6,212 nucleotides of DNA from Okeania sp. (GTDB lineage Bacteria; Cyanobacteriota; Cyanobacteriia; Cyanobacteriales; Microcoleaceae), in the NCBI RefSeq assembly GCF_035285525.1, contig NZ_JAYKGW010000045.1, forward strand, positions 1 through 6,212, read 5' to 3'. The notes beneath the pieces were generated by a model that had not been told where the DNA came from, ran no database searches, and was given only the letters and a program-made list of their open reading frames with translations. Each line of letters starts with the position of its first letter. Position 1 is the first letter of the stretch. Shown one piece after another: positions 2 to 6,212 of the stretch. A program made the position numbers and the translations under genes.

Positions 2-823
2 ATTTTAGATTATTTTGGTGAAGTATTGCAGCCAGAATTAACTTTAGCTGATGCAATTAAACAAGGTGCTTTAGCTCGTTATCTTTATTATCCAGTTTTA
101 GTAGAATTGACTGAAGAGGAAAGTCGAAATTATGCAAAACTTACCTCTAAAATTGGTTGGGCATTATTATTATCAGAAAAAGAAAATGTAGAAATAGAAA
201 AAGAAGATTTAAAAGCTTTATTGATGCAGCGTTCCCGATTAATTGCTTCAGCAGCAAATAAATTAACAGCATTAAGAAAATTAATGGCAAGTCGTTTACA
301 AACAACTCATACTTTATTTTATTGTGGAGATGGTTCGGTAGAAACAGAAAATATTTCAAATTTACGACAAATGGAAGCGGTGGTAAAAATATTAGGTTCA
401 GAATTAGGTTATAGAGTTAATAGTTATATTGCGGAAACTCCGATTAAAAAAAGAGAGAAATTAAGACAACAATTTGAAAGTGGAGAGTTACAAGGTTTAG
501 TAGCAATTAATTGTTTAGATGAAGGGGTAGATATACCTGTAATTAAAAATGCAGTTATCTTAGCAAGTAGTCGAAATCCTCGACAGTTTATTCAGAGAAG
601 AGGTAGAATTTTACGACCTCATCCCAATAAGGAAAGAGCAACTTTATTTGATATGATTGTTTTGCCTCCAGATCTGGGTAGAAGTAGTTTAGAGGTAGAA
701 CGAAATTTGCTGAGAAAAGAGTTAAAAAGGTTCTTAGAATTTGCCGATTTAGCAGATAATGCTGGAGAAGCTAGAGTTAAGTTATTAAACATTCAAAAAA
801 GGTATGGATTATTAGATATTTGA
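2..823 (+). CDS. SF2 helicase, C-terminal (RecA2) half; ResIII/Helicase_C-type DEAD/DEAH-like helicase; 5' end lies outside the window
   Basis: The frame is open from nt 2 (ILDYFGEV...), so the TTG at 26 used by the ORF track is probably not the true start. The translation carries helicase C-terminal motifs: LFYCG (motif IV-like), LVAINCLDEGVDIP (motif V; DEGVDIP = 518-538) and QFIQRRGRILR (motif VI; QRRGRILR = 593-616). Stop TGA is at 821-823. Confidence 0.8.
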   Translation: MLDYFGEVLQPELTLADAIKQGALARYLYYPVLVELTEEESRNYAKLTSKIGWALLLSEKENVEIEKEDLKALLMQRSRLIASAANKLTALRKLMASRLQTTHTLFYCGDGSVETENISNLRQMEAVVKILGSELGYRVNSYIAETPIKKREKLRQQFESGELQGLVAINCLDEGVDIPVIKNAVILASSRNPRQFIQRRGRILRPHPNKERATLFDMIVLPPDLGRSSLEVERNLLRKELKRFLEFADLADNAGEARVKLLNIQKRYGLLDI

Positions 824-890: not shown

Positions 891-3014
891 ATGTCTCTAG
901 AATTACCAGAAGCAAATCCTAAAAACTTGTTAGATATTATTAAATATGCTGTGGAAGGAACAGTTGTTATTCCTGATTTTCAAAGATCTTTTGTTTGGAA
1001 AAAAGATGATATTCAAGATTTATTAACTTCTTTATTGCAGGGTTATTTTATCGGAATATTTTTGATGTTAGATACCTCTAGTAAAAACCCAATGTTTCCT
1101 TTTAGATTTGTGGAGGGAATAACAGATAAACCTAATGCTACAGACAATGTAAGGTTAGTTCTTGATGGTCAGCAACGCATTACTTCTCTATATTATGCAC
1201 TTTATGAACCTAATCAACCTCTAAAAGGGGCTAAAAATCCTTATCGTTTTTATTTACGTTTAGAGTCAGTTTTAGATAATGATTTAGAAAGTGCAGTGAT
1301 AGGTATATCTGAACGGGATAGCCGTAGAAGAAAAGAATATGATGAATTAGTAAAACAACACAAAGCCTTACCTTTTTCTCTATTGCGAGATTCTAATAGT
1401 TTTAATAAGTGGCTGTATCGAGAACAAGATATTTGGGAGGATAAACAACAAGAATTATTGATAAATATCCATGAAAGGCTCCATAAATTTATGGTTCCTG
1501 TTATTTCCTTATCTCCTGAAACAAGAGAAGAAGATATTGTCAATATTTTTGAGCGAATTAATCGTACTGGTGCTAGTCTTTCTCTTTTTGATTTGGCTGT
1601 AGCAAATATTTATAAAAAGGGAGTAAATTTACGAGATTTATGGCAGAAAGCTCAAAATAATTATCAGGAAGTTACAGATTTAATTAAACCAGAATTTTTA
1701 CTGAGACTAATTGCTTTGGGGCAAGCCATAGAACCAAAAAAAGGTAACTTATTAAAAATGACAAGATACATAGAAGGAGAATTATTTAAAAAGTTATGGC
1801 ATGAAGCAGTTAAGTCAATAGTAACAGCTTATCAAAGATTAATTAATGTGTATGGAGCCTTTGATTCTAAGTGGATTCCTTATACTACTTTAATTGTTCC
1901 TTTGGCTGCTTTATTAAATAAAATAAATCGAATTTCTGCTGGTGCTGAAGCTTATCAAAAGTTAGATTGTTTTTATTGGGGATGTATTTTAGGTCAGCGT
2001 TATGACAATGCTGTAGATAGCAAAATTCATTATGATTTTCAAAATGTTAGTGGATGGATAGATAATCAGGGAAATGCACCAGAATGGTTGCAAAAATTAT
2101 CTGTTCAAAGTTTTGATTTAAAGACTGAGGAAAGTTATACAACTTTATATAGAGGATTAATGGGATTAATTGCTTGTGAAGGTTCTAAAGATTTTTTAAC
2201 AGGGCAACCTGCAGAAATTAATAAATGTCAAGATGACCATATTTTTCCTAAGTCTAGGTATAGTGAAAAATATGATAATTTAGTTGATAGTATTCTGAAT
2301 CGAACTTTAATTTCTCAAGCAACTAATAGATGTAAAAGTAATAAACTTCCGGCGGATTTTTTAGATGATTGTTTGGCTAAACATGGTGGTAATAAAGAGC
2401 AGCTTTTAGAAACTTTAGCTAGTCATTTTATTGATGAGGATGGGTATGCAGCAATGCAAAATAATGATTTTATTCGTTTTATAAATTCTCGTCAGAAAGT
2501 TATGCAAAAAAAATTACAAGAAATTGTATCTTTAGCTGAACCTATTGAGGAGTTAGAAGTTGTTTTTGAAGATGAGGTGACATATTGGTTAACTCCAGTT
2601 GCTGCTACTGAGGAACGTTCTGCTTCTGAGCAAATTAAGTTTTTGGTTGGTGAAGAAAAGATTTATGCTTTTGGAGATAAAACTCCTGGTAGAAAAAGTC
2701 TTAAGTCTGGGGATAATATTTGTTTTTATGCTGCTGCTAAGGGTATTGTTGCTCATGCTTTAGTTAAAACTAAACCAGAAAAGTCGGCTCATCCTAAAAT
2801 TTTTAATTCTGATAGGTATCCTTGGGTTTTTGAGTTAGAAAAACCTTGTTTATATTTGGATAATCCTGTAGTTTTAGATGAAGATTTAAGGAATAAGTTA
2901 GATGCTTTTTTAGGGCGTAGCGATCGTTCTAATTGGTCATGGTTTGTTCAGGTTACTAGAAAAATTTCTGCCAATGATTTTGTAGTTTTGACTAGAGATT
3001 TTTATAAGGTATAA
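891..3014 (+). CDS. GmrSD-family (DUF262 + DUF1524) type IV restriction-like nuclease with an additional C-terminal EVE/PUA-like domain
   Basis: 707-aa ORF. DUF262 signatures: IPDFQRSFVW (aa 27-36), DGQQR (aa 92-96, nt 1164-1178) and FERINRTGASLSLFDL. DUF1524/His-Me finger-type signature: DDHIFPKS (His450 = nt 2238-2240) followed by LNRTLISQATNRCKSNK. About 145 further residues follow the nuclease domain. Stop TAA is at 3012-3014. Confidence 0.85.
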   Translation: MSLELPEANPKNLLDIIKYAVEGTVVIPDFQRSFVWKKDDIQDLLTSLLQGYFIGIFLMLDTSSKNPMFPFRFVEGITDKPNATDNVRLVLDGQQRITSLYYALYEPNQPLKGAKNPYRFYLRLESVLDNDLESAVIGISERDSRRRKEYDELVKQHKALPFSLLRDSNSFNKWLYREQDIWEDKQQELLINIHERLHKFMVPVISLSPETREEDIVNIFERINRTGASLSLFDLAVANIYKKGVNLRDLWQKAQNNYQEVTDLIKPEFLLRLIALGQAIEPKKGNLLKMTRYIEGELFKKLWHEAVKSIVTAYQRLINVYGAFDSKWIPYTTLIVPLAALLNKINRISAGAEAYQKLDCFYWGCILGQRYDNAVDSKIHYDFQNVSGWIDNQGNAPEWLQKLSVQSFDLKTEESYTTLYRGLMGLIACEGSKDFLTGQPAEINKCQDDHIFPKSRYSEKYDNLVDSILNRTLISQATNRCKSNKLPADFLDDCLAKHGGNKEQLLETLASHFIDEDGYAAMQNNDFIRFINSRQKVMQKKLQEIVSLAEPIEELEVVFEDEVTYWLTPVAATEERSASEQIKFLVGEEKIYAFGDKTPGRKSLKSGDNICFYAAAKGIVAHALVKTKPEKSAHPKIFNSDRYPWVFELEKPCLYLDNPVVLDEDLRNKLDAFLGRSDRSNWSWFVQVTRKISANDFVVLTRDFYKV
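2580..3011 (+). other. C-terminal EVE/ASCH-like (PUA-fold) putative modified-base reader domain of the GmrSD-like protein
   Basis: From aa 564: TYWLTPV ... LKSGDNICFYAAAKGIVAHALVKTKPE ... YPWVFELEKPCLYLDNPVVLDEDL ... RKISANDFVVL. This matches the EVE pattern: YWL start, GD-x-hFYH-like strand followed by G-I-V-hydrophobic, W-x-V-x-hydrophobic, and a C-terminal L-S/T-xx-F-xx-L. The assignment is by eye only. Confidence 0.45.
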
Positions 3015-3160: not shown

Positions 3161-3168
3161 GCGATCGC
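3161..3168. repeat. HIP1 (highly iterated palindrome 1) octamer GCGATCGC
   Basis: Perfect GCGATCGC, embedded in the 10-bp palindrome AGCGATCGCT (3160-3169). A 7/8 copy, GCGATCGT, lies at 2920-2927 inside the GmrSD-like gene. Confidence 0.6.
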
Positions 3169-3335: not shown

Positions 3336-3377
3336 ACTCCTTCTTCCTTTTTCCTTCTTCCTTCTTACTTCTTACTT
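3336..3377 (+). repeat. Heptanucleotide tract, 6 units of consensus CTTCCTT, directly upstream of the 81-aa ORF
   Basis: ACTCCTT CTTCCTT TTTCCTT CTTCCTT CTTACTT CTTACTT, followed by AAATAAAA-ATG(3386). It is preceded by the pyrimidine run T7CT7CC (3313-3329). Confidence 0.85.
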
Positions 3378-3385
3378 AAATAAAA

Positions 3386-3631
3386 ATGACTTTAAAATAT
3401 TCAGATAAAGTAATCAAAGAAATATCAACTATTTTTGCTGAAAAGCATTCTAAATATAATCCTAAAACTCAAAATAAACTCAATAATATTCAAGAGCCAA
3501 TTACGACGGCTCCCCCAGAAGTAAAAAAAATTATTGCGCGAGTTTTACAATTAGAAAAAGACAGACTTTATAAAAAAACTCCTAGAATTAATGATGATAT
3601 TATCAAAATTATTAAAGAAGCAATTCAATGA
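3386..3631 (+). CDS. Hypothetical 81-aa lysine-rich protein. Its stop overlaps an ATPase-type start codon (ATGA).
   Basis: ATG 3386 is the first start after an in-frame TAA (3377-3379). There is no obvious SD. The stop TGA (3629-3631) overlaps ATG 3628 of the first copy of the ATPase start, an arrangement typical of translationally coupled operon partners. I recognise no family. Confidence 0.5.
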   Translation: MTLKYSDKVIKEISTIFAEKHSKYNPKTQNKLNNIQEPITTAPPEVKKIIARVLQLEKDRLYKKTPRINDDIIKIIKEAIQ

Positions 3632-3711
3632 AATTAATTTTAATTATTTTGTGTAATTTTCGACAATTTTACGGCAAAAGTCGAGAAATAGTTTTAGCAT
3701 CAGGGAAATAG
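3628..3711 (+). pseudogene. Truncated ATPase start, copy 0 (MKLILIILCNFRQFYGKSREIVLASGK*)
   Basis: 27 codons homologous to ATPase codons 1-27. TAG at 3709-3711 takes the place of Gln28. The ATG overlaps the small-ORF stop. Confidence 0.8.
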
Positions 3712-3717
3712 AGTTTT

Positions 3718-3745
3718 CTTACTTCTTACTTCTTCCTTTTCCCTT
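3718..3745 (+). repeat. Heptamer tract, 4 units
   Basis: CTTACTT CTTACTT CTTCCTT TTCCCTT. Confidence 0.85.
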
Positions 3746-3763
3746 AAATCAAGAAGCAATTCA

Positions 3764-3847
3764 ATGAAATTAATTTCAATTATTTTGTGTAATTTCTGGC
3801 AGTTTTATGGCAAAATATTACAAATAGTTTTGAAATCAGGGAAATAA
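3764..3847 (+). pseudogene. Truncated ATPase start, copy 1 (MKLISIILCNFWQFYGKILQIVLKSGK*)
   Basis: 27 codons plus TAA at 3845-3847. Confidence 0.8.
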
Positions 3848-3853
3848 AGTTTT

Positions 3854-3867
3854 CTTCCTTCTTCCTT
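3854..3867 (+). repeat. Heptamer tract, 2 units
   Basis: CTTCCTT CTTCCTT. Confidence 0.85.
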
Positions 3868-3885
3868 AAATCAAGAAGCAATTCA

Positions 3886-3969
3886 ATGAAATTAATTTCA
3901 ATTATTTTGTGTAATTTTCGGCAGTTTTATGGCAAAACTCCAGAAATAATCTTGGCATTGGGAAAATAG
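3886..3969 (+). pseudogene. Truncated ATPase start, copy 2 (MKLISIILCNFRQFYGKTPEIILALGK*)
   Basis: 27 codons plus TAG at 3967-3969. The variable part is of the same type as the genuine gene. Confidence 0.8.
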
Positions 3970-3975
3970 AGTTTT

Positions 3976-4018
3976 CTTAACTTCTTCCTTCTTCCTTCTT
4001 CCTTCTTCCTTCTTCCTT
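3976..4018 (+). repeat. Heptamer tract: one degenerate 8-mer followed by 5 perfect CTTCCTT
   Basis: CTTAACTT, then CTTCCTT x5 (3984-4018). Positions 3981-4018 are 38 nt of pure pyrimidine. Confidence 0.9.
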
Positions 4019-4036
4019 AAATAAAGAAGCATTTCA

Positions 4037-4120
4037 ATGAAACTAATTTCAATTATTTTGTGTAATTTTCGGCAGTTTTATGGCAAAATATTACAAATAG
4101 TTTTGAAATTAGGGAAATAA
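4037..4120 (+). pseudogene. Truncated ATPase start, copy 3 (MKLISIILCNFRQFYGKILQIVLKLGK*)
   Basis: 27 codons plus TAA at 4118-4120. It is in the same reading frame as the genuine ATPase ORF, since 150 nt equals 50 codons. Confidence 0.8.
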
Positions 4121-4126
4121 AATTTT

Positions 4127-4168
4127 CCTCCTTCTTCCTTCTTCCTTCTTCCTTCTTCCTTCTTCCTT
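4127..4168 (+). repeat. Heptamer tract: CCTCCTT followed by 5 perfect CTTCCTT
   Basis: Positions 4123-4168 are 46 nt of pure pyrimidine. The first unit, CCTCCTT, equals the core of the 16S rRNA 3'-end anti-SD sequence. Confidence 0.9.
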
Positions 4169-4186
4169 AAATTAAGAAGTAGTTCA

Positions 4187-6212
4187 ATGAAATTAATTTC
4201 AATTATTTTGTGTAATTTTCGTCAGTTTTATGGCAAAACTCCAGAAATAATTTTGGCATCAGGTAAACAAAATACAACAATTATTCATGGTAACAATGGT
4301 GCAGGTAAAACCACGATAATGAATGCTTTTACTTGGGTACTTTATGAAAAATTTAGTGCTGCTTTTGCAGCAGAAACTCAATTAGTAAATAAACGAGCAA
4401 TTACAGAAGCAAAACCAGGTCAAGCTATAGCTTGTTGGGTAGAAATTATGTTTGAACATGATAATAAACGTTATCAAATTAAACGTTTATGTCGAGCTTA
4501 TAGAAACGAAAAAAATCGAATTGAACATGGTAAAAGTGAGCTATATATGCAAATAGCTGGAGATGATGGACGTTGGTCTCCACCACCGGAACATCCTGAT
4601 GATATTGTTGGGAGAATTTTGCCAGAAAGTTTACATAGATATTTCTTTTTTGATGGGGAAAGAATTGAGTATATTTTTAGGGATAACCAGAAAAGTGAAA
4701 TTGCTGAAGCTACTAAAGAATTATTGGGAATTGAAGTATTAAATCGTTCTGTTAGACATTTAGGAGAAGCTAAAAAGTCTCTGGAAACTGATTTAAGATT
4801 GATTGGTAATCCTGAGACTAAAAAGTTATTGAAGGAAAAAAGTCAAGTTGAAAAGGAAATTGATAAATTATCAAAACGCCAAAAAGAAATAGACAAAGAA
4901 TTACAACATTATCGGGAATTTAAACGAGAAATTAGTAGTCGTTTATTGGATTTTAAAGGTGCAGAAGGTTTGCCTCAACAAAGAGATCAATTAAAAGTTC
5001 AGATTGGAGCAATTAGAGAACAAATAGTACAAGCAAATCAGGTTTTGAAAAGAGCTATATCAACTCGTGGTTATATGGTATTTTTATCAGAATCAATAGC
5101 AGAATTTCGAGAATTATTTGGTTATTTAAAAGAAAAAGGGGAGTTACTTACTGGAATTAATCGGCAGTTTATTCAACAGTTATTAGAGGCACAACTTTGT
5201 ATTTGTGGAACTGAATTAACTAAAGATTCGACTGGGAGAAAATTAGTAGAAAAATGGATGGAAAAAGTAGAGATTGCTGATGTTGAAGAAACTGCTATTA
5301 AAATGACTGTACAAATGGATGAAGTTGAGAAACAAGTAGTAGATTTTTGGGAGGAAGTTGATAGACAACAGGGAAATATAGAACAATTACGTTCTCAACT
5401 TTCCGGGATTGAAAATCAATTAGACATCGTTCAAAAAAAATTACGCAGTTATCCTAATGAGGATATTCAGAAGTTACAAAAAAGGTTAGATGAAATTGAA
5501 GTTAAGGTGGGAGATTTAAACCGGGAAACTGGTTCAAATAATTTACAGTTAGAAACTTTTAATCAACAAATTAAGGTTTTAGAGAAACAACTAGATCGCC
5601 AAAAAATGAATGAGGTAAAACAAGTTTTATGTCAAAGACGAATTGCTGCTACTCAAGATGCTATTCAGAGATTAAACGAAGTTAAGTTACGTTTAGAAAA
5701 ACAGTTTAGAGTTTCTTTGGAAAAACGGATACAAGAATTATTTTCGGAAATTTCTTTTACTCCTTATATTCCTCAACTTAATGAAAATTATGAGTTAACT
5801 TTAGTGGAAAATACTGGTGGTAAAAATTCTTTGGTTGCTGCTTCTACAGGAGAAAATCAAATTCTTAGTTTGGCGTTTATTGGTAGTATTATTGACCAGG
5901 TGAGAGAATGGAGTCAAAAAAATACTTTAATGGGTCCTGATAGTAGCACTTTTCCGATTGTTATGGATTCTCCTTTTGGCAGTTTAGATGAAATTTATCG
6001 ACGACAAATTGCTAAAAAAATTCCTCGATTAGCAAATCAATTAATTGTATTAGTAACTAAGACTCAATGGCGTGGTGAAGTTGCGGAAGAAATGGCTGAT
6101 TATATTGGTAGAGAATATGTTCTTTCTTATAATTCTCCAAAACCAGATTGTGAGGAAGATGCTATTGAGTTAGATGGTAAATCTTATGCTTTGGTAAAAC
6201 GTAGTCCGAATG
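4187..6212 (+). CDS. DndD-like / SMC-Rad50-like ABC ATPase with a long coiled-coil insert; 3' end lies outside the window
   Basis: My own translation gives 675 codons with no stop before the window edge. The gene is absent from the supplied ORF track. The N-terminus is MKLISIILCNFRQFYGK. Walker A is GNNGAGKTT (4289-4315). An FFFDGERIE motif is present. About 350 aa are heptad-like and rich in K, E, Q and L. The ABC signature-like ASTGENQILSLAF has STGE at 5843-5854. Walker B/D-loop is IVMDSPFGSLD (5957-5989). Confidence 0.85.
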   Translation, partial: MKLISIILCNFRQFYGKTPEIILASGKQNTTIIHGNNGAGKTTIMNAFTWVLYEKFSAAFAAETQLVNKRAITEAKPGQAIACWVEIMFEHDNKRYQIKRLCRAYRNEKNRIEHGKSELYMQIAGDDGRWSPPPEHPDDIVGRILPESLHRYFFFDGERIEYIFRDNQKSEIAEATKELLGIEVLNRSVRHLGEAKKSLETDLRLIGNPETKKLLKEKSQVEKEIDKLSKRQKEIDKELQHYREFKREISSRLLDFKGAEGLPQQRDQLKVQIGAIREQIVQANQVLKRAISTRGYMVFLSESIAEFRELFGYLKEKGELLTGINRQFIQQLLEAQLCICGTELTKDSTGRKLVEKWMEKVEIADVEETAIKMTVQMDEVEKQVVDFWEEVDRQQGNIEQLRSQLSGIENQLDIVQKKLRSYPNEDIQKLQKRLDEIEVKVGDLNRETGSNNLQLETFNQQIKVLEKQLDRQKMNEVKQVLCQRRIAATQDAIQRLNEVKLRLEKQFRVSLEKRIQELFSEISFTPYIPQLNENYELTLVENTGGKNSLVAASTGENQILSLAFIGSIIDQVREWSQKNTLMGPDSSTFPIVMDSPFGSLDEIYRRQIAKKIPRLANQLIVLVTKTQWRGEVAEEMADYIGREYVLSYNSPKPDCEEDAIELDGKSYALVKRSPN

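Follow-up and report, generated by a model that had tools for sequence, protein, structure and literature searches.

We have analysed a window of 6,212 nucleotides (nt) of an Okeania sp. genome (contig NZ_JAYKGW010000045.1), in which two genes of a Pbe-type defence operon, pbeB and pbeC, are separated by an array of heptameric (CTTCCTT)n tracts alternating with longer homologous units. All genes lie on the + strand, in the order PbeA C-terminus, GmrSD_N/HNH protein, an 81-amino-acid (81-aa) open reading frame (ORF) and PbeC. The first of these (2..823) is the helicase C-terminal part of the Pbe/Dnd-type protein PbeA, cut by the contig end (PADLOC PbeA, E=2.8e-91; NCBIfam dnd_restrict_1, E=3e-111; Pfam Helicase_C). 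The 81-aa ORF (3386..3631) matches no family in Pfam, PADLOC or NCBIfam; from its position and size it is probably the cyanobacterial PbeB, and we refer to it below as pbeB. In the archetypal PbeABCD system the pbeB product has 66 aa, is of unknown function and is essential for defence (PMC6459918). Orthologues of 80-91 aa overlap pbeC by 4 nt (ATGA) in Okeania, Dapis, Trichodesmium-like, Microcoleus and Capilliphycus loci. The intact pbeC gene (4187..6212) encodes a DndD/SMC-like ATPase (PADLOC PbeC, 1061.7 bits over 1-648/648) and runs for 675 codons before the contig ends within it. Its product is 90-93% identical to that of relatives, and its divergence from the Dapis gene, 26% at 4-fold degenerate sites as against 9% over all sites, indicates that it is under purifying selection. 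A PbeA helicase, a small putative PbeB and a DndD/SMC-like PbeC are thus found in one operon, the arrangement of PbeABCD, with pbeD beyond the contig end.

Five tracts of period 7 occupy positions 3336-4168 on the + strand. Tandem Repeats Finder (TRF) places them at 3338-3377, 3716-3738, 3852-3867, 3981-4018 and 4125-4168, with 90-100% matches, and parsing in register gives about 6, 4, 2, 6 and 6 units, the numbers counted in a preliminary description of this DNA. Tract 1 (3337..3377), which we take as ancestral, comprises about six units, the 6-nt CTCCTT and the heptamers CTTCCTT, TTTCCTT, CTTCCTT, CTTACTT and CTTACTT, and ends 8 nt before the pbeB ATG. Tract 2 (3718..3745) has four units (CTTACTT, CTTACTT, CTTCCTT, TTCCCTT) and tract 3 (3854..3867), detected both by TRF and by a 14-mer probe, has two perfect ones. 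Tract 4 (3976..4018) amounts to about six units, five perfect CTTCCTT preceded by the 8-nt CTTAACTT at 3976-3983, which holds a 1-nt insertion; tract 5 (4127..4168), also of about six, consists of CCTCCTT and five perfect CTTCCTT. The variants CTTACTT, CCTCCTT and TTTCCTT reported earlier are all present, together with TTCCCTT and CTTAACTT. The 14-mer (CTTCCTT)x2, with up to two mismatches allowed, matched 18 times, always on the + strand within 3336-4168, against an expectation of 0.20; none of 200 shuffled controls reached that number. The ATG-to-ATG spacings of the units (136, 122, 151 and 150 nt) equal 108+7n with n=4, 2, 6 (plus 1 nt) and 6, so that tract length together with one 1-nt insertion accounts for the variable period, as had been proposed. 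Pyrimidine runs in the array measure 30, 38 and 46 nt, and the longest, at 4123-4168 around tract 5, is uninterrupted and mirror-symmetric, again in agreement with the initial account: (CTTCCTT)n read in reverse is the identical periodic sequence in another phase. Tracts 4 and 5 keep perfect runs of five units while the longer units diverge pairwise by 6-16%, which argues for continuing slippage turnover.

The identity of the longer units had been missed. They are truncated and decayed copies of the pbeB/pbeC junction. Each joins the final 17 nt of pbeB (…AAGAAGCAATTCAATGA) to the first ~87 nt of pbeC, and an alignment of the units with the corresponding junctions in the live gene and in five relatives has a mean column identity of 89%. 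Each carries its own ATG (3628, 3764, 3886 and 4037) and a 27-codon ORF (MKLISIILCNFRQFYGK…GK*); the fifth copy is the live gene, with its ATG at 4187. A stop at codon 28 is common to all four dead starts, where the live gene has CAA. Dead start 1 (3611..3717; TAG at 3709-3711) is still attached to pbeB, whose stop overlaps its ATG (ATGA), and differs from live pbeC at 9/80 nt. Dead start 2 (3746..3853; TAA at 3845-3847) opens with the head TTAAATCAAGAAGCAATTCA, in which the 3' flank of tract 1 is fused to the last 17 nt of pbeB with 34/38 identity to the predicted fusion. Dead start 3 (3868..3975; TAG at 3967-3969) is the least decayed, with 5/80 nt differing from live pbeC, and dead start 4 (4019..4126; TAA at 4118-4120) is a sister copy of unit 2, from which it differs at 4/80 nt. 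A last head remnant, TAAATTAAGAAGTAGTTCA (4169..4186), precedes the live gene and keeps an AAGAAG resembling a Shine-Dalgarno (SD) sequence 7 nt 5' of the ATG.

That these are decaying pseudo-starts is argued by a motif near the PbeC N-terminus. All 120 retrieved PbeC homologues keep (K/Q/R/E)(T/S)P(E/K/T), typically KTPE, at residues 17-20; it is lost in units 2 and 4 (KILQIVLK) and in unit 1 (KSREIV). The same universality led us to reject the idea that units 2 and 4 are N-termini captured from foreign pbeC alleles. Adenine mutagenesis of the diversity-generating retroelement type was rejected as well, since the substitutions in the units are not A-specific, and nothing in the array resembles CRISPR repeats and spacers: each ~108-nt unit has its homologue in the pbeC 5' end, and the intervening sequence is microsatellite. 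Beyond each tract two of the three reading frames stop within ~25 nt, and the third runs open and in frame into the ATG of the next unit. The notion that each slippage event changes the reading-frame relationship between neighbouring units holds in the literal sense that 7-nt steps shift it; however, each dead ORF ends at its TAG or TAA before reaching its tract, so that no protein is affected.

Comparison with related loci places the array in time. We compared Dapis (L001 and L002), Okeania (L003 and L004), Microcoleus (L254), Capilliphycus (L253) and metagenomic relatives (L005, L124, L125, L246-252, L258/259). In every one of these, pbeB overlaps pbeC by ATGA and there is no array. The closest lineage (L255-257), whose PbeC is 93% identical at the aa level and whose nt divergence is 6.3%, carries a homologous array with only two dead starts; its ATGs lie at 4683, 4841 and 5001 of L255 and its tracts have 7, 4 and 4 units. 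Window and sister lineage have in common the tail junction GGGAAAT(G/A)GAGTTTT-CTTACTTCTTACTTCTTCC and the head start CCTTAAATTAAG, and the L255 tail junction, GGGAAATGGAGTTTT-CTTACTT CTTACTT CTTCCTT…, is one base off the junction between unit 1 and tract 2 in the window. The heads differ in that those of L255-257 keep 42 nt of the pbeB 3' end and those of the window keep the same sequence minus 24 nt between TTAAG and TTAAAG. The common junctions indicate that the array arose once, before the two lineages split, and that copy number diverged later. The three L255-257 assemblies are identical over the array. In L255 the dead ORFs (4683-4800 and 4841-4958) have TGG where the window has TAG or TAA and read through the tract to the TAA of CCTTAAAT; tract length there alters a presumably meaningless peptide.

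The site of tract 1 is itself variable. Most relatives have a heptamer or pyrimidine-rich tract directly 5' of pbeB, and L124 and L253 have none. The sequence before the ATG is ACTCCTT(CTTCCTT)2TTTCCTT(CTTCCTT)3 AAATAAAAATG in L255 (7 units), CTTCTTCCTTCTTACTT AAATAAAAATG in Okeania L003/4 (~2.4 units), CTTCCTTCCTT AAATCAAAATG in L258/259 (~1.6 units) and CTTCCTTCTTCCTTCT AATTATG in Microcoleus L254 (~2.3 units). Where the tract is of CTTCCTT type, an A/T-rich spacer of 4-10 nt leads to the ATG, beginning with AAAT in the three closest relatives. Across four lineages including the window, tract 1 thus numbers ~1.6, 2.4, 6 and 7 units, and the internal tracts number 4, 2, 6 and 6 here against 4 and 4 in the sister; the earlier proposal that heptamers were gained and lost after the units duplicated is supported by these figures. 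The proposed count of heptamers in sister strains gave a divided answer: numbers differ between lineages but were invariant among the few near-identical assemblies available (L255-257, L003/L004, L246-251), where no length polymorphism was seen. In other lineages that site holds different motifs: (TAATTGT)x5, which reaches up to the GTG start, in L246-252 (~2727-2761), and (CCCTACT)x2-3 in Dapis (L001 7722-7748). The heptamer motif thus turns over at a fixed position 5' of pbeB. Okeania L003 has (CCCTACT)x5 at 7551-7590, ~170 nt further upstream. A scan of viral contigs for the unit core gave no match, nor did exact-sequence look-ups of the pbeB product and of the DUF262 protein described below, and a metagenome scan with the junction pattern GGRAAATARARTTTTCYT, which is AT-rich and too degenerate, gave 120 matches, all single chance ones and none aligning to the window.

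We consider it likely, with a probability of about 0.78, that the tracts of the array are paralogous copies of an ordinary microsatellite 5' of pbeB, which were spread by segmental duplication and then drifted in length, and that the array is a near-neutral scar. The sequences show that a segment made of the tract, pbeB and the first ~87 nt of pbeC was duplicated in tandem in an ancestor shared by this Okeania sp. and its sister lineage. Most of pbeB was deleted from the new copy, which left a module of ~110-160 nt: the tract, what remained of the pbeB 3' end, and the truncated start of pbeC. This module was amplified independently, to two dead starts in the sister lineage and four here. The amplification probably went by unequal recombination between modules, after which replication slippage probably brought heptamer numbers to 6, 4, 2, 6 and 6 here and 7, 4 and 4 in the sister. 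At 34-36 of 38 positions the unit heads agree with the sequence expected if the 3' flank of tract 1 were joined to the 3' end of pbeB, which marks the internal tracts as copies of tract 1. The unit divergence of 6-16%, being lower than the 4-fold divergence from Dapis, fits an origin after the separation from Dapis. The duplication junction may have formed through CAAAAT microhomology. After pbeC codon 29, unit 4 reads TAA AAT|TTTCC, the live gene CAA AAT|ACA and the 5' flank of the Dapis tract CAAAAT|TTAC, a comparison that suggests, with moderate support, a 6-nt microhomology at the tail junction.

Several points weigh against this reconstruction. The tail junction agrees with the predicted chimera at 17-21 of 32 positions, compared with 14-18 for uninterrupted pbeC. 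The order duplication, deletion, amplification is one that we infer, and near-neutrality, although it seems to us the most likely state of the array, is assumed. L258/259, whose PbeC is 92% identical, has no array, and the tree does not firmly tell whether it never had one or lost it: a split before the array arose was recovered in 115 of 200 tree resamplings, against 82 for later loss. Finally, the occurrence of four different heptamer motifs at the site 5' of pbeB and the polarity of tracts toward ORF boundaries described below both hint at a function or at strongly biased mutation.

The view of tract 1 as an ordinary microsatellite draws on the distribution of the motif at large. When 185,579 species genomes were scanned, (CTTCCTT)x3 was met in at least 118 stretches (L006-L123). 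The matches listed, on which all counts in this paragraph are based, belong overwhelmingly to Microcoleus, Okeania, Tychonema, Kamptonema, Dolichospermum, Richelia and other Oscillatoriales, with several loci per genome (at least 4-6 in Okeania genomes). The repeats are head-to-tail 7-nt units, dispersed and mostly intergenic in these related genomes, with 15/91 tracts inside ORFs of at least 100 aa. Flanking ORFs encode KdpC, MoxR-type AAA, TruB, RecQ, methyltransferase and DUF1825 proteins, and their Pfam matches run to the true termini. The tract is therefore a generic microsatellite resembling the short tandemly repeated repetitive (STRR) sequences of cyanobacteria, with no special tie to defence. 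The link to this locus or to defence genes that the preliminary description entertained is not borne out; the stretches stand beside ordinary genes, and what was found is the generic microsatellite that the description itself had set against such a link. The tracts do show a marked polarity. Read along the pyrimidine strand, the 91 non-redundant tracts have 50 ORF boundaries within 30 nt beyond their 3' end but only 2 ahead of their 5' end (binomial p=6e-13). The commonest position, seen for 34/91 tracts, is within 30 nt (often 0-4) of the stop codon of an opposite-strand ORF; another 16/91 stop no more than 30 nt short of a same-strand ATG, in many cases only 0-6 nt, with no room for an SD sequence. 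Among the papers searched, none describes the motif CTTCCTT in cyanobacteria.

Compound arrays of a unit and a variable heptamer tract, with the architecture seen in the window, occur elsewhere, in Okeania sp. KiyG1 (L058 5780-6380) and at L120 1540-2200 and L046 880-1030. There the heptamers vary in both length and motif (GAAGGAA, GAATAAG, GAGGGAA), and in L058 a 26-nt unit, GTAAAAATTTAGTCATTATTCAGAAG, is present ~9 times. A further composite repeat is dispersed over many Microcoleus loci: at L254 1040-1225, tandem ACATCCGTT-type 9-mers are followed by GTTGCCGAA and then by (CTTCCTT)n, with (GGCATAG)x5 nearby. The heptamer tract is thus sometimes part of a larger dispersed element.

A different explanation makes the tract the cause of the array: pyrimidine mirror repeats would form intramolecular triplex (H-DNA), stall replication and drive duplications and contractions. 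The sequence prerequisite is present as the preliminary description stated, the runs being homopyrimidine, mirror-symmetric and 40-46 nt long; both novel module junctions lie within ~10 nt of a tract, on its 5' and its 3' flank, and tandem arrays at other loci, as just described, also enclose heptamer tracts of variable length. For stability, however, a Y.R.Y triplex needs protonated cytosines, and with C at three of seven positions this one would be of limited stability at neutral pH. Most orthologous loci have a tract 5' of pbeB with no duplication at all. In a crude control on the intergenic segments of the 118 listed (CTTCCTT)x3 loci, local direct repeats other than simple sequence repeats (SSRs) were found in 9/62 tract-bearing segments and 26/233 others (odds ratio 1.35, p=0.5), so the stimulation of recombination suggested for the tracts is not borne out. 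Tandem repeats are common in these genomes generally, and a driving role of the tract is accordingly not demonstrated. In favour of the model, some cyanobacteria, Trichodesmium included, show a moderate excess of mirror and oligopyrimidine runs (PMC4060949). All told, we regard a causal role of H-DNA as rather unlikely, although it fares best among the alternatives to duplication followed by drift.

Somewhat less probable still is a cis-regulatory role, in which the tract would be an S1-recruiting pyrimidine leader or a site for a post-transcriptional regulator, and its copy number, with the four decoys, would tune or phase-vary PbeB/PbeC dosage. MacGregor (2015) proposed binding of S1, Csp or Csr for heptamers just 5' of start codons (PMC4679880), and the 8-nt distance of tract 1 from the pbeB ATG, like the 16 tracts close to same-strand starts, is what such a role would predict. 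The recurrence of heptamers of changing motif at that one site (CCCTACT in Dapis, TAATTGT x5 in L246-252, CTTCCTT in Microcoleus) also favours it, and the leader forms less structure than shuffled sequences do (z=+1.58). On the other hand, neither motif nor tract is conserved, L258 retaining ~1.6 units and L124 and L253 nothing. A leader function cannot explain the tracts abutting opposite-strand stop codons, which are twice as many as those near an ATG. No sigma-70-like hexamer pair flanks or spans any tract in a promoter scan. When both strands of the leaders were folded, z values ranged from -0.99 to +1.58, so that these are no more structured than shuffled sequence; a predicted 6-bp CUUCUU/AAGAAG hairpin is likewise indistinguishable from shuffled sequence, an Rfam scan of the window returned no family at threshold, and a scan of the + strand of the array returned no terminator. 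Length polymorphism is missing among near-identical assemblies, and changes of 7n nt alter no frame here. Two sub-threshold Rfam hits are most likely due to chance: IMES-5 at 4104-4192 (-) over tract 5 (23 bits vs 96 gathering, E=0.37) and Yfr10 at 1794-1865 (-) inside the DUF262 gene (27.5 vs 43 bits, E=0.64).

Whatever its origin, the array has a consequence for the operon. Live pbeC now starts 556 nt downstream of pbeB, whose stop overlaps a 27-codon decoy, so that pbeC is no longer translationally coupled to pbeB. Each module keeps its native initiation region, in which an SD-like AAGAAG precedes the ATG by 7 nt, and live pbeC can for that reason still be translated. A translationally coupled gene pair of a Pbe operon can in this way be separated without destroying either gene. 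If one of the dead starts recombined with the live start, the ancestral pbeB/pbeC overlap would be restored exactly, a property that also counts in favour of regulation. One could go further and imagine that heptamer tracts are functional punctuation set in a strictly polar way against ORF boundaries, an SD-free pyrimidine leader before starts and a purine-rich (AAGGAAG)n tail after stops in Rho-less organisms, and that the array is a reversible copy-number switch; expansion would then uncouple, and collapse recouple, the translation of two essential defence components. We consider this speculation improbable. As for an assembly artefact, the window is the entire 6,212-bp draft contig and tandem repeats invite mis-joining of reads in short-read assemblies, but the units are distinguishable (6-16% different) and three independent sister-lineage assemblies show a homologous array with the same junctions, which makes this explanation very improbable indeed.

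The array as a duplicated and drifting microsatellite invites comparison with known heptameric systems. STRR heptanucleotide repeats of filamentous cyanobacteria were reportedly described by Mazel et al. in 1990; the motifs STRR1-3 are CCCCAGT, TTGGTCA and CAACAGT. Like them, CTTCCTT is a tandem 7-nt unit with many mostly intergenic sites and a copy number that varies between lineages. It differs in that CTTCCTT/AAGGAAG is not among the three motifs and is pure pyrimidine/purine, and, in the matches listed, in occurring mainly in Oscillatoriales (Microcoleus, Okeania, Tychonema) and in some heterocystous genera (Dolichospermum, Richelia). Kinship with the STRR class combined with a motif outside it, as first suspected, is therefore upheld. 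Heptamers are the over-represented SSR class in bacteria (PMC4679880, PMC4692102), and the second of these papers cites three tandem heptanucleotides of Calothrix PCC 7601 as STRR sequences. The TAACTGA repeats of Beggiatoaceae, cyanobacteria and Bacteroidetes end a few nt 5' of start codons and show 7-nt insertions and deletions between strains (MacGregor 2015, PMC4679880). With these, CTTCCTT has in common direct heptamers near start codons, often without SD room, variation in 7-nt steps and downstream genes that follow no functional pattern, whereas its motif is different and its commonest position is beside an opposite-strand stop codon. The GGGAATC / GGGGA(T/C)T repeats of Xanthomonas and Nostoc lie much nearer to the ORF on one side than to that on the other (Rehm et al. 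2015, PMC4692102); they too are genome-wide, mostly intergenic, polar irrespective of ORF orientation, variable in length and potentially able to adopt non-B DNA. They are G-rich, however, and form G-quadruplexes, whereas CTTCCTT would form a triplex if anything.

Other parallels are looser. The contingency loci of Haemophilus, Neisseria and Moraxella likewise put a slippage-prone SSR beside a defence gene related to DNA modification. The CTTCCTT tract, in contrast, lies neither in a coding frame nor in a promoter spacer between -35 and -10 hexamers, its 7-nt changes shift no frame, and near-identical assemblies show no polymorphism. In Trichodesmium erythraeum IMS101, of the same cyanobacterial family, the 3' part of Tery_0080 is duplicated in each of seven repeats (Pfreundt et al. 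2014, PMC4143802). There too a truncated copy of the gene next to the array is contained in the tandem units, but they measure 736-973 bp, derive from the gene's 3' end, yield a very highly transcribed non-coding RNA and have no interleaved heptamers. The tracts resemble H-DNA-forming mirror repeats, such as the GAA.TTC tracts of the Mirkin and Frank-Kamenetskii work among the references of PMC4060949, in being homopyrimidine mirror repeats of more than 40 nt; they differ from them in that their triplex is a putative one and in showing no enrichment of rearrangements at tract-bearing sites.

The analysis corrects an over-reading of the locus. What might have passed for a defence-linked array driven by DNA structure is better regarded as a generic cyanobacterial microsatellite carried along in a segmental duplication. 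It offers a datable example of tract evolution, with 0, 2 or 4 units and ~1.6-7 heptamers in lineages that are 6-7% apart in the adjacent gene. The genome-wide polarity of the tracts toward ORF boundaries is the most intriguing residue of the analysis and may merit a dedicated study.

The window as a whole is AT-rich (G+C 30.5%) and, in keeping with a cyanobacterial host, contains a highly iterated palindrome (HIP1) site, GCGATCGC, at 3161-3168. Between pbeA and pbeB lies a gene for a 707-aa protein with GmrSD_N (DUF262) and HNH domains (891..3014; Pfam GmrSD_N 5e-31, HNH_4 2e-5). It occupies that position on this contig only and in none of the relatives examined: the interval between pbeA and the small ORF is non-coding DNA in L001 and L003, and non-coding DNA or other genes in the other relatives. 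The C-terminal ~140 residues of the protein (~570-707) match no Pfam, PADLOC or NCBIfam model and, judged by eye, resemble a small nucleic-acid-binding domain. In the two closest lineages (L255-L258), homology to the window ends ~60-110 nt 5' of tract 1 (window ~3275), a synteny breakpoint just 5' of the tract; upstream of pbeB they have an ORF of 183-185 aa and next a gene, on the opposite strand, for a large NACHT/NB-ARC STAND NTPase, with no pbeA within 5 kb. In Dapis sp. BLCC M229 the pbeA-pbeB interval (L001 6760-7500) contains a ~370-bp direct duplication, in which the block …tattgctcctgggaaaaattcctgca…taataaaatttagttgaataaa… occurs twice; this is a further sign that the region between pbeA and pbeB is prone to tandem duplication.

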